64,000 nt of DNA from the NCBI RefSeq assembly GCF_055900595.2, contig NZ_CM148325.1; one strand, written 5' to 3'. Shown in pieces: positions 46,221-47,626 of the stretch. Numbering within the stretch: the first letter of the stretch is position 1; each line of letters starts with the position of its first letter. The notes below the pieces were generated by a model. The model made no database searches. It saw nothing but the letters and a program-made list of their open reading frames with translations, and was not told where the DNA came from. The position numbers and the translations under genes are program-made.

Positions 46221-47222
46221 TTAAAATAGCATTTGAGTCAAATAGCCCATCAAGATAGCCATACCTAAGATAACCGTCAGGAATGCAACTATCATCGGTA
46301 TTCTGAACATTGATTTAAGTAATATCACTTCCGTCAGACTTGCGCCGGCACTGCCGATGATTAATGCCATTAATGCTCCCAGACCCATTCCTTTTGTCAT
46401 CAGAACAGATGCCAGAGGGATAACCGCCTCTGCCCGGATATACAGCGGGATTCCGACAACGGCGCTCAATGGGATGGCGAAGGGATTATCTGCCCCTGCA
46501 TGAGCGGCAATCCACGCTGAGGGAATAAAGCCATAAATAAAAGAGCCTATTAATACCCCTAACAAAAGATATGGCAGTACATCTTTAAACTGTTGCAACG
46601 CATCTTTGGTGGCTAGTTTTATGGGATTAATACTTACCACAGCTTTGGTACTGCAACAGTTTACTACCGGTTTCTCAATGGCTTTAGCCGCTGGACTACA
46701 GCAACTCACTTTTATTGGCGTATATGTCGTCCCCGGCGAAGTTTTGGCTGGAGAGCAACAATTTGCTGATGAGCTTTTACTGGCAATGATATGACGTTCA
46801 AATCTCAGAGAATCCAGGATAATACTGGCAAGTACGGAGACGCCGGCGGCGATAATCGCGTACAACAAGGTAACTTTCCAACCAAAGGTCACCCACATTA
46901 ACCCGACGATAATGGGATTAAGTAACGGTGAAACAAATAAAAAAGTGAGAGTCGGACCAAACCCGGCTTTCGCTGACAACAATCCACGTAGCATGGGTAT
47001 TGTCGAGCAACTACAGAACGGGGTAACGGCTCCCAACAGAGCAGCCAGGAGATAGCCTCTCCCTTTTCTGGCCCCCATCATCTGCTGGATTTTATGGTCT
47101 GGCACCTTTTGTCTTATCAGGCTGACACCGGCACTAATCACCATAAACAGCAAAGAAAGCTCGACGGCGAGAAACACAAACATCTCTGCGGCATCTTGCA
47201 GCATCGCAAGCCAACTACTCAT
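46221..47222 (-). CDS. ArsP-like permease (COG0701 predicted-permease family) with TPFCSCS motif and a Cys-Cys-rich central loop, about 333 aa
   Basis: Polytopic membrane protein with the conserved TPFCSCS motif characteristic of ArsP organoarsenical efflux permeases, plus a loop holding three CC pairs. Start set at the second ATG (MSSWLAM), which has a GAGG Shine-Dalgarno; the six-frame ORF starts at 47234. Confidence 0.75.
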   Translation of the reverse strand: MSSWLAMLQDAAEMFVFLAVELSLLFMVISAGVSLIRQKVPDHKIQQMMGARKGRGYLLAALLGAVTPFCSCSTIPMLRGLLSAKAGFGPTLTFLFVSPLLNPIIVGLMWVTFGWKVTLLYAIIAAGVSVLASIILDSLRFERHIIASKSSSANCCSPAKTSPGTTYTPIKVSCCSPAAKAIEKPVVNCCSTKAVVSINPIKLATKDALQQFKDVLPYLLLGVLIGSFIYGFIPSAWIAAHAGADNPFAIPLSAVVGIPLYIRAEAVIPLASVLMTKGMGLGALMALIIGSAGASLTEVILLKSMFRIPMIVAFLTVILGMAILMGYLTQMLF

Positions 47223-47329
47223 AAGTAACCTCATTGAATAAAACTATATTTCCAGAATAATCGAAATGAAGTTCAGATCAAGATATTTCTGGTATTATCG
47301 AAATATCAACCAGACAGAGGGGGTGACAC

Positions 47330-47626
47330 ATGCAATTGGAAGAGGTCGCTAAGGCACTGAAAGAGTTAGGTCATCCGACCCGTTTGTTCATATTTAAGCA
47401 TCTGGTCAAAGCGGGGGAACAAGGTTTGCCGGTCGGTGAGTTGCAAAAGCAGCTTGGGATACCCGGCTCTACACTCAGTCACCATATTTCAGCACTGGTA
47501 TCGGTAGGACTGGTCAAACAAAACCGTGAGAGTCGAACGCTGATGTGTGTTTCGCAATACGCAATGCTGGAAGCGATAATTGAATTCTTACGCGAGGAGT
47601 GCTGCGTAAATAGCAAAATTGCCTGA
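47330..47626 (+). CDS. ArsR/SmtB-family transcriptional regulator (second copy, distinct from arsR), 98 aa
   Basis: Winged-HTH region (LPVGELQKQLGIPGSTLSHHISALVSVGLV); C-terminal vicinal cysteines (REECCVN) instead of the ELCVCDLC site of canonical ArsR; GAGGGGG Shine-Dalgarno; divergent from the permease. Confidence 0.75.
   Translation: MQLEEVAKALKELGHPTRLFIFKHLVKAGEQGLPVGELQKQLGIPGSTLSHHISALVSVGLVKQNRESRTLMCVSQYAMLEAIIEFLREECCVNSKIA

Follow-up and report, generated by a model that had tools for sequence, protein, structure and literature searches.

The closest described counterparts of the gene pair considered here come from bacterial arsenic resistance. The permease ArsP of Campylobacter jejuni (TCDB 2.A.119, PF03773), which mediates efflux of methylarsenite and trivalent roxarsone but not of As(III) or pentavalent arsenicals, is encoded first in an arsP-arsR-arsC-acr3 operon, and trivalent organoarsenicals are the specific target of two known functions, ArsP and ArsH (PMC6205960). 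A ‘tPF’ prefix before the cysteine pair has been described for cluster 2 of the ars-operon ArsP proteins (PMC4435449), and a CSC motif is common to the SO_0444 Cu/Zn exporters and SaoE (bioRxiv 10.1101/2022.07.06.499078). Among repressors, the A. ferrooxidans protein AfArsR (6j05) has a type-2 As(III) site, and the methylarsenite-selective ArsR of Shewanella putrefaciens 200 (SpArsR) is described as AfArsR-like, with a vicinal cysteine pair and the third cysteine missing (PMC11868830, PMC13236881). Moreover, a plasmid cluster related to our pair is already in print as arsP-arsR-arsH, the names there being annotation only (PMC6449608).

The pair lies in a 64-kb stretch of DNA (hereafter the window) and, in accordance with the original prediction, is arranged divergently between a yhiS-like gene and arsC, with the permease gene on the minus strand and the regulator gene on the plus strand. 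It is an uncharacterised example of an ArsR-family repressor combined with an ArsP-family permease, and leaves the known categories unchanged. A search of the literature found no experimental characterisation of any copy or of any member of the clade, which agrees with the earlier statement that substrate and inducer are established for no E. coli copy. The features referred to below are as follows.

45957..47556: segment of ~1.6 kb lost in K-12, O157:H7 and HH45 and replaced there by ~100 bp; its right breakpoint lies inside the regulator gene
46221..47222, minus strand: ArsP_1 (PF03773) permease gene, 333 aa from the probable start M5; RefSeq CDS named ‘permease’
46221..47234, minus strand: longest permease ORF, 337 aa, from which residue numbers are taken
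46626..46790, minus strand: permease central loop, residues 149-203, disordered, lysine-rich and probably cytoplasmic, with NCCSP, SCCSP and NCCST
47004-47024, minus strand: codons of TPFCSCS (T71-P-F-C74-S-C76-S77), read from the sequence, residues 71-77 of the 337-aa ORF
47246..47267: operator-like box 1, ATATTTCCAGAATAATCGAAAT, overlapping the -10-like hexamer of a promoter-like site facing the regulator gene
47283..47304: operator-like box 2, ATATTTCTGGTATTATCGAAAT, between the -35- and -10-like hexamers facing the permease gene
47330..47626, plus strand: ArsR/SmtB-family repressor gene, 98-aa ORF (Pfam HTH_20/HTH_5; NF033788)
47546-47548, plus strand: regulator C73, in strand beta2 before helix alpha5 (model)
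47600-47605, plus strand: regulator C91-C92 (...EECC...), just after helix alpha5, residues 77-89 (model)
49542-49895: neighbouring canonical ArsR, carrying the ELCVCDLC-type site

Both ORFs were found as predicted, at 46221..47234 (minus strand) and 47330..47626 (plus strand). The permease probably starts at M5 (47222), which yields 333 aa, as this start is used by RefSeq, is preceded by GAGG 7 nt upstream, and corresponds to the residue at which the Aeromonas, Citrobacter and Salmonella proteins begin. The divergent spacer, 95 bp in the original prediction, becomes 107 bp with the probable start. The family assignments also stand: residues 14-334 of the permease match positions 4-293 of the 294 in Pfam ArsP_1 (PF03773, E=1.1e-52), and the regulator reaches 61.9 bits against the NCBIfam ArsR/SmtB metalloregulator model NF033788, the cut-off of which is 55.

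The narrower description of the permease as ArsP-type fares less well, and it is probably not an orthologue of the Campylobacter ars-operon protein. With the permease from the arsP-arsR-acr3 operon of Campylobacter sp. P0444 as a stand-in for C. jejuni ArsP, homology extends over the full length, yet identity is 32% (E=2e-45) and the two proteins fall in separate clades of a neighbour-joining tree without support values. Our permease and C. jejuni ArsP belong to the same Pfam family and both adjoin an inorganic-arsenic pump, and the position of the C-x-C pair and the ‘tPF’ prefix are the same as in ars-operon ArsP (PMC4435449). However, the gene for our permease diverges from that of a small dedicated regulator and does not head an operon, and the protein carries a long CC-repeat loop where the Campylobacter stand-in has a single cysteine. 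Among NCBIfam models, the permease scores highest with that of SO_0444 Cu/Zn efflux (NF033936), matched over its full length at 108.7 bits, and the SaoE model (NF040736) is matched at 83.4 bits; both scores fall far short of the curated cut-offs (300, an equivalog cut-off, and 325, respectively), and membership in either family can be rejected. What is common to our permease, SO_0444 and SaoE is full-length homology and the CSC motif, and SO_0444 further differs in that its partner regulator is of the ZntR type (PMC3219624), not an ArsR.

The motif TPFCSCS had been proposed to define organoarsenical permeases. When aligned, F73, C74 and C76 are invariant in all 61 family members, including those from Campylobacter and Helicobacter ars operons, such that the cysteine pair of ArsP is indeed kept, and TPFCSC occurs in most of 94 full-length top representatives; at the C-x-C position K-12 YraQ carries CTCC. 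Judged from these alignments, however, the C-x-C pair is a feature of the whole family and not an arsenic-specific one, and because the CSC motif is common to Cu/Zn exporters and SaoE it cannot identify the substrate. In the AlphaFold2 model of the permease (pLDDT 87, pTM 0.83) the cysteine pair sits at a break between helices 59-70 and 75-87, and a fold comparison likens the predicted structure to elevator transporters that contain hairpins; by sequence, the permease has no match in the PDB. The resemblance extends to the ion-transporter group (ArsB, DASS/INDY, Pho90, AbgT), with identities of 7-12% and lengths of 430-540 aa as against 333 aa, and, being one between a predicted model and solved structures, does not by itself demonstrate mechanism.

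The central loop of the permease is modelled with pLDDT 47-64 and without secondary structure. Eleven lysines or arginines are counted in residues 143-217 as against none in the loop at 237-252, and the CC-repeat loop is probably cytoplasmic. It is strongly variable among relatives, where we distinguish 41 variants of between 60 and 108 aa, each with 2-4 CC. Purifying selection acts on both genes: in comparison with E. coli A7, dN/dS is 0.10 for the permease, and the regulator shows 15 synonymous and 0 non-synonymous differences (dN/dS 0).

The regulator matches Pfam HTH_20 (E=2.4e-14) as well as HTH_5, and its predicted model (pLDDT 92.8) has the order a1-a2-a3-a4-b1-b2-a5. It can be ruled out as a type-1 ArsR, given that it has no ELCVCDLC triad in the DNA-binding region and no cysteine before residue 73; the model NF007528, which covers type-1 ArsRs of the R773 and E. 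coli chromosomal kind, is absent from its matches, whereas the neighbouring ArsR scores 232.6 bits. The best solved relative is AfArsR, both in a single-sequence search (E=4.7e-10, followed by E. coli YgaV, 3cuo, and BigR, 3pqj, as matches 2 and 3) and with a family profile (E=1e-16, with the next match at 1e-9). The two proteins align without gaps at an offset of +4, which places C91/C92 on C95/C96 of AfArsR at the end of alpha5. The third AfArsR ligand, C102, has no counterpart in the regulator, which ends 6 residues past the CC pair, and the position of C73 is occupied by Tyr77 in AfArsR.

Cysteine conservation within the regulator family is pronounced, C73 being present in 121/121 sequences, C91 in 118/121 and C92 in 117/121, and C73 is invariant also in a second regulator alignment (A3). 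No cysteine precedes residue 73 in the regulator or in 106/120 homologues, and none follows the CC pair in the regulator (which ends at residue 98) or in 93/120 homologues. The suggestion that the regulator has a C-terminal metalloid site different from that of the canonical ArsR is thus borne out, yet its restriction to the CC pair is not, as C73 is also invariant. By its published description SpArsR is alike in having a CC pair without the type-2 third cysteine; it differs in the numbering of that pair (101/102 as against 91/92), and the regulator family has C73 in addition. No S. putrefaciens protein was present among the 120 best homologues of the regulator from Shewanella D64.

Boxes 1 and 2 form a 22-nt direct/inverted repeat family, and box 2 contains a perfect 8-nt palindrome (GATATTTC-N10-GAAATATC). 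The box pattern occurs only in these 2 copies in the 64-kb window, against an expectation of 0.18, and the boxes are kept from Escherichia to Shewanella while the rest of the spacer has diverged. Promoter-like hexamers are found in the region at the level expected by chance. We also considered cross-control of arsRBC by the regulator, and reject it, there being no box-like site elsewhere in the window.

Turning to genomic context, arsC is followed directly by the pair in E. coli and E. fergusonii (arsR(B)C) and in Citrobacter (arsRDABC). In a Salmonella island, arsRDABC is followed by ArsH (TIGR02690, 405 bits against a cut-off of 292) and then by the regulator facing the permease. On plasmid R64 (NC_005014) and on pESI-like plasmids, the permease faces a regulator-arsH-sigma-arsD series, and arsH, arsD and arsA share the operon of the regulator. 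All three mobile settings (R64, a pESI-like plasmid and the Salmonella island) have a 96%-identical regulator that faces the permease, with arsH behind it in the same orientation. The R64 regulator is identical to the chromosomal one at 92/96 positions, with near-identical boxes. The plasmid and chromosomal clusters are thus alike in both genes, in their divergent arrangement and in their operator boxes, with the permease 74-79% identical between them, but the chromosomal copy lacks the arsH, sigma-factor and arsD genes downstream of the regulator, and its permease loop is shorter (3 CC in a protein of 337 aa, as against 4 CC plus CxxxC in one of 377 aa). Elsewhere no ars genes are found near the pair, which stands by itself in Aeromonas, in Shewanella, on an Ignatzschineria-like contig and in two further genomes, so the linkage to ars genes may represent a single arrangement inherited within the enterobacteria rather than several independent ones. 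Nevertheless, an arsenic role for the pair is plausible on these comparisons, as originally suggested, given that the CC pair aligns with that of AfArsR, the closest relative of solved structure, that the gene pair recurs beside ars operons, and that on the mobile copies an arsH operon begins with a 96%-identical regulator.

The original prediction described the pair as an insertion of about 2 kb missing from K-12. Both genes are indeed absent between the yhiS remnant and arsC in K-12 (strain DSM 498 and MG1655-type records), but the segment concerned measures ~1.6 kb (45957-47556) and the direction of change is the reverse. In blastn comparisons the breakpoints (left 45946-45956, right 47557-47564) are common to three lineages (K-12, O157:H7 and HH45), all of which retain ~70 bp of the 3' end of the regulator gene; in HH45 this remnant is annotated by PGAP as a pseudogene, ‘transcriptional regulator, missing N-terminus’. 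Furthermore, E. fergusonii has arsC-regulator-permease at the same site. From the common breakpoints, the remnant and the E. fergusonii pair, we conclude that the pair is ancestral at the Escherichia arsC/yhiS junction and that one old 1.6-kb deletion removed it from K-12-type strains. Insertion by a mobile element is rejected, since the ends carry no transposase genes or repeats, the deleted allele holds a remnant, and the pair is at the same site in E. fergusonii. Among complete E. coli genomes the pair is present in 2221/5426, and 59% are without it. K-12, a strain without the pair, has been reported to be sensitive to methylarsenite and resistant to As(III) (PMC11653729).

The explanation that we favour, and that we judge to have a somewhat better than even chance of being right, is that the pair constitutes a self-contained and self-regulated unit for detoxification of trivalent arsenicals, ancestral at arsC/yhiS and lost from K-12-type strains through the 1.6-kb deletion. 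Under this explanation, a homodimer of the 98-aa repressor would occupy the two conserved 22-bp palindromic boxes, which would overlap both divergent promoters, and would thereby repress its own gene and that of the permease. Binding of a thiophilic trivalent arsenical by the C91/C92 thiolates at the end of helix alpha5 would cause the repressor to leave the DNA. This putative site corresponds to the AfArsR type-2 position minus the third ligand, an arrangement to which the methylarsenite selectivity of S. putrefaciens ArsR is reported to be due, and C73 of the partner subunit may contribute to binding. The permease would act as a secondary carrier, a two-fold repeat in which two helices are broken or form hairpins, in the manner of elevator-type carriers of the ion-transporter group to which ArsB belongs. 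Export of the arsenical would make use of C74-x-C76, the invariant pair situated where the helix is broken, and substrate may be caught and passed on by the CC-repeat loop, which is lysine-rich and probably cytoplasmic. As substrate and inducer we prefer a trivalent organoarsenical, either methylarsenite or reduced aromatic arsenicals, with inorganic As(III)/Sb(III) a close second.

Several alternative hypotheses may account for the same observations. The architecture could be as outlined above with inorganic As(III)/Sb(III) as effector and substrate, in which case C73 of the partner subunit together with C91/C92 would form a three-coordinate sulfur site and the permease would serve as a second arsenite pump behind ArsB. 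The conservation of C73 (121/121 sequences) matches that of the CC pair, and the model places this cysteine in beta2 just before alpha5, with the CC pair just after that helix. In ArsR/SmtB dimers the alpha5 helices pack antiparallel, and C73' could consequently approach C91/C92; given its invariance, it could supply the third ligand of a three-sulfur site, and a site of that kind would be better suited to inorganic As(III)/Sb(III), or to Cd/Pb/Hg, than to methylarsenite. Also in keeping with this alternative, three cysteines are found in all characterised As(III)-responsive ArsRs (PMC11868830), and the pair adjoins arsRBC or arsRDABC. However, such a pump would be redundant with the ArsB of the same locus, the regulator operon of the mobile versions includes arsH, the known activity of which is on organoarsenicals, and As(III) is not transported by C. 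jejuni ArsP (PMC6205960), and overall we regard this alternative as rather unlikely. More improbable is that sensor and pump serve a soft metal cation (Cd, Zn, Cu(I), Hg or Pb) instead of arsenic, the adjacency of the pair to ars genes merely reflecting clustered metal-resistance cargo. The regulator has a weak match to CmtR, and three-cysteine ArsR/SmtB sensors such as CmtR sense Cd/Pb; many soft metals are bound by CC-rich loops, and the pair occurs alone in many marine Gammaproteobacteria. SO_0444, whose family model is the top-scoring NCBIfam match of the permease, is required during Zn/Cu stress (PMC3219624). Yet the full-length score of 108.7 bits is far under 300, and the Campylobacter ars-operon ArsP also matches that model (61 bits); SO_0444 is itself under ZntR/MerR-type rather than ArsR control (PMC3219624), among solved regulators the nearest, whose cysteine pair aligns with the CC pair, senses arsenite, and on R64 and pESI the regulator shares its operon with ars genes.

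We attach very little probability to a regulator acting as a thiol-redox or persulfide sensor of the BigR/SqrR/YgaV kind, with a permease that exports a sulfur compound. Although YgaV and BigR follow AfArsR in the single-sequence PDB search, a weak match to the BigR model NF040642 exists, and a peroxiredoxin-type gene adjoins the pair in Shewanella D64, the family profile ranks AfArsR above YgaV/BigR by at least 7 orders of magnitude, and the linkage to ars genes and arsH also argues against this function. In BigR-type sensors an alpha2 cysteine is paired with an alpha5 cysteine; the regulator has no alpha2 cysteine, 106/120 family members have no cysteine before residue 73, and the NF040642 score is 38.5 bits against a cut-off of 155, such that membership of the regulator in the BigR/SqrR family is rejected. 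The least credible alternative, to which we give almost no weight, is that the pair no longer has any function in E. coli and, as a dispensable relic, is in the process of being lost, as might be suggested by its absence from the majority (59%) of complete E. coli genomes and by the permease loop being a hotspot for indels.

Returning to the detoxification unit that we favour, it can be extended to a bolder proposal, which we put forward only tentatively and consider doubtful. In this extension, the widespread regulator family (~97 aa) would possess an undescribed ArsR metalloid site, formed by C73 in beta2 of one subunit and C91/C92 of the other, the fast-evolving CC-repeat loop would be a built-in, ArsD-like chaperone feeding the C-x-C pair, and ~41% of E. 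coli, together with the poultry-associated R64/IncI1 and pESI plasmids, would thereby be resistant to methylarsenite or reduced roxarsone.

The 98-aa repressor with its defined 22-bp operator-like boxes would offer a compact sensor for arsenic-species biosensors, and the CC-loop variants provide a natural series for the study of thiol-rich loops that serve transporters. Should methylarsenite or reduced aromatic arsenicals prove to be what the pair exports, an organoarsenical defence would be carried by a large proportion of natural E. coli, though not by the laboratory strain, and would also be present on widespread IncI1 (R64-type) plasmids and on pESI-like Salmonella plasmids of poultry. This would bear on the co-selection of resistance plasmids by arsenical feed additives and, as methylarsenite made by Paraclostridium inhibits K-12 (PMC11653729), on the competition of E. 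coli with arsenic-methylating anaerobes of the gut.

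The divergent permease and regulator genes situated between a yhiS-like gene and arsC form a real and intact accessory unit that is missing from K-12, and the original prediction was correct in recognising them, since the two ORFs, their family matches, and the positions of the permease TPFCSCS motif and the regulator CC dipeptide were all confirmed. The family names it gave are also appropriate: the permease matches ArsP_1 in Pfam (PF03773, E=1.1e-52), and the regulator matches HTH_20/HTH_5 and exceeds the NCBIfam cut-off for ArsR/SmtB metalloregulators. The pair is an uncharacterised member of families already known.

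Features of the pair and its flanks (permease residues are numbered on the longest ORF)
44417-45640, minus strand, yhiS-like gene, flanking the pair on one side
46221-47234, minus strand, permease ORF (longest ORF, 337 aa)
47004-47024, TPFCSCS codons of the permease
47246-47267, operator-like box 1 (22-nt element), in the divergent spacer
47283-47304, operator-like box 2 (22-nt element), containing a perfect palindrome, GATATTTC-N10-GAAATATC
47330-47626, plus strand, regulator ORF (98 aa)
47600-47605, CC codons of the regulator
47760-48185, minus strand, arsC, flanking the pair on the other side

The pair is absent from K-12-type genomes, and had been described as inserted beside arsRBC, yet the evidence indicates a deletion instead. 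When the K-12 spacer was compared with the window by sensitive blastn to place homology breakpoints, homology ended at 45956 and restarted at 47557 inside the regulator gene, of which K-12 keeps the last ~70 bp and stop codon (82% identity); a scrap of the permease gene (16/17 nt) lies between these breakpoints, with order preserved. O157:H7 and strain HH45 share the K-12 breakpoints (left 45946-45956, right 47557-47564, with ~100 bp of filler), and the HH45 remnant is annotated by the NCBI pipeline as a truncated 'transcriptional regulator' pseudogene. Moreover, E. fergusonii carries the pair at the same site (gorA-dinQ-arsR-(gap)-arsC-regulator-permease). The shared breakpoints, the regulator remnant and the E. 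fergusonii arrangement show that Escherichia had the pair ancestrally and that the K-12 allele arose by an old deletion of 1.6 kb. Among complete E. coli genomes, 2221 out of 5426 contain 80% or more of 45600-47760. Purifying selection acts on both genes: against E. coli A7 (94.7% DNA identity), the permease gene has 27 synonymous changes and 9 non-synonymous ones (dN/dS 0.10, as for arsC), and the regulator gene 15 synonymous and none non-synonymous, its protein having the same accession.

Several further features of this neighbourhood deserve mention. In HH45 (2151-2994 of its locus) not only the pair but also arsR and arsB are missing, with dinQ directly after arsC; decay of the ars locus therefore takes more than one route in E. 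coli. The yhiS-arsC neighbourhood (44100-48300) is unusually diverged within the species: identity of its flanks to K-12 and O157:H7 is no more than 89-90%, dS against A7 (0.12-0.26) is as large as against E. fergusonii (0.13-0.21), and just 19 records match the window allele at 99% identity or above, which suggests old alleles or between-species exchange at the locus. The yhiS-like ORF is intact here (407 aa, in a very AT-rich stretch of GC 0.30-0.35) and matched no NCBIfam family; it is IS5-split and frameshifted in K-12 and truncated in HH45. The spacer from the regulator stop codon to arsC (47627-47759) consists of REP-type palindromic repeats (e.g. GTAGGTCGGATAAGACGCGTTAGCGTCGCATCCGAC), a 38-nt piece of which also matches other places in E. 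coli chromosomes, and the same REP block directly follows the regulator remnant in K-12. Just upstream of dctR-slp, the window strain has the chuA-chuS haem uptake genes (41830-42858), a position occupied by hdeB-yhiD in K-12-type strains; chu is both present and absent among carriers of the pair, and A7 has yhiD.

Regulator and permease make up a conserved unit, which occurs alone in Aeromonas, in Shewanella D64, on an Ignatzschineria-like contig, in one further genome and in a vent metagenome bin, and members of the regulator family were also found in Vibrio, Photobacterium, Enterovibrio, Thalassotalea and others. In enterobacteria the pair keeps company with arsenic genes: it follows arsC of arsRBC in Escherichia, arsRDABC in Citrobacter, and arsRDABC with a true ArsH (405 bits, cut-off 292) in a Salmonella island. 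A tblastn search of PLSDB placed the permease on 997 plasmid records (629 at 60-80% identity), mostly from Escherichia and Salmonella and mostly conjugative. The plasmid paralogue is already annotated arsP/arsR in the literature (PMC6449608), where we found no functional study of the plasmid cluster.

Plasmid clusters carrying the pair
R64, locus 28187-31551, regulator, then arsH, an ECF-type sigma factor gene and an arsD-like gene, all co-directional; permease divergent
pESI-like S. Infantis plasmid, locus 5779-9047, gene order as in R64, with the regulator facing the permease

The R64 regulator is identical to that of the window at 92/96 positions, and its boxes are the same. Both of these arsenic operons contain a sigma factor gene, placed after arsH and before the arsD-like gene, with SigZ as its best match (139.7 bits, under the 168.65-bit cut-off). 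A second, remoter plasmid permease of the family (~47% identical), adjoining a small helix-turn-helix gene, occurs on E. coli plasmid p1919D62-1 (6563-8020, with lnu(G) beside it) and on IncHI1B and other plasmids of E. coli, Klebsiella, Enterobacter and Salmonella.

The 22-nt box pattern has no further occurrence in the 64-kb window (0.18 expected by chance), and, in a spacer that otherwise diverges, both boxes are kept in E. fergusonii, Citrobacter, Salmonella, R64, Aeromonas and Shewanella. Each overlaps a promoter-like hexamer pair, one facing each gene, such matches being no more frequent than chance in the region. Divergent autoregulated repression through the boxes would be the natural reading of this arrangement.

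Among solved structures, the best match of the regulator is the A. ferrooxidans ArsR (AfArsR, PDB 6j05), with E=4.7e-10 for the single sequence and 1e-16 for a 45-sequence family profile, whose next match was at 1e-9. The two proteins align without gaps at an offset of +4, putting C91/C92 on C95/C96 of AfArsR, its As(III) ligands together with C102 (PMC11868830, PMC13236881). Unlike AfArsR, the regulator stops six residues past the CC with no further cysteine, and none follows the CC in 93 of 120 homologues. The S. putrefaciens ArsR, without the third cysteine, is responsive to methylarsenite and unresponsive to arsenite (PMC11868830, PMC13236881). The C-terminal CC proposed as the metalloid site is indeed there, but a two-cysteine description is incomplete, as a third cysteine, C73, is present in 121/121 sequences (C91 in 118/121, C92 in 117/121); C73 is retained too in more distant regulators partnering 45-50%-identical permeases. 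An AlphaFold2 model (pLDDT 92.8) places C73 in strand beta2 (residues 70-75) and the CC just past helix alpha5 (77-89), a helix-length apart inside one subunit. ArsR/SmtB dimers typically pair their alpha5 helices antiparallel, and by analogy C73 and the CC of opposite subunits could meet across the dimer interface. BigR-type sensing is unlikely because the regulator has no alpha2 cysteine and its 38.5 bits fall short of the 155-bit cut-off.

The TPFCSCS motif was over-weighted as defining organoarsenical permeases. An alignment of 61 relatives, with identities as low as 30%, shows no variation at C74-x-C76, F73, P80, S102, P103, P238 or G282, and TPFCSC(S/T/A) is found in most of the top 94 full-length representatives from a 1.84-billion-protein library. 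C(S/T)C is universal among ars-operon ArsP homologues, with the 'tPF' prefix in one of two clusters (PMC4435449), and CSC is the most conserved motif common to SO_0444 Cu/Zn exporters and SaoE (bioRxiv 10.1101/2022.07.06.499078; PMC3219624). Because CSC is common to these families, and K-12 YraQ has CTCC at the same position, C-x-C is a marker of family, not of substrate. The permease falls outside both SO_0444 (108.7 bits, cut-off 300) and SaoE (83.4 bits, cut-off 325), its scores being below the cut-offs. As a stand-in for C. jejuni ArsP we used a Campylobacter sp. permease from an arsP-arsR-acr3 operon (Acr3 at 375 bits, cut-off 283), which shares 32% full-length identity with the permease of the window (E=2e-45). 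A neighbour-joining tree (no support values) groups the Campylobacter and Helicobacter proteins into a clade of their own, apart from that of the permease and its partners.

The permease model (pLDDT 87, pTM 0.83) comprises two repeats (residues 1-148 and 204-337) linked by a disordered loop (149-203), each repeat having a long helix, a centrally broken helix pair (breaks at 71-74, i.e. TPFC, and 265-267) and further helices. Fold comparison gave matches including NaS1, AbgT, VcINDY and CNT, which are re-entrant-hairpin carriers of the elevator type, and the resemblance suggests that the cysteine pair may lie at a hairpin tip within the substrate site. Lysine and arginine counts (5 in loop 41-58, 11 in 143-217, 2 in 307-311 and 0 in 237-252), read by the positive-inside rule, predict a cytoplasmic central loop. 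This loop contains three CC dipeptides, in contrast to a single cysteine in the Campylobacter stand-in. Close relatives have 41 distinct loop versions of 60-108 residues, very different in sequence, every one with 2-4 CC pairs, to which a CxxxC is added in the longer versions; loops of more distant members are still cysteine-rich, with up to seven CC. Constraint on the loop seems to act on the cysteines only. The vicinal cysteine pairs of ArsD are known for soft-metal(loid) capture, and a comparable capture role would fit the CC loop. Within E. coli, loop indels (46626-46790; e.g. a 4-residue 'ASAK' gain and a 'SINP' loss) give permeases of 322-358 aa, which suggests that the sequence between the CC pairs is slippage-prone and fast-evolving.

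A role in handling trivalent arsenicals, taking organoarsenical and inorganic versions together, is quite probable for the pair. An organoarsenical effector is favoured mainly because of the linkage to arsH, since trivalent organoarsenicals are the known specific targets of ArsH and ArsP (PMC6205960); this version is somewhat more probable than the rival with inorganic As(III)/Sb(III) as effector or substrate. The invariant C73 of the regulator and the CC-repeat loop of the permease are each worth an experiment.
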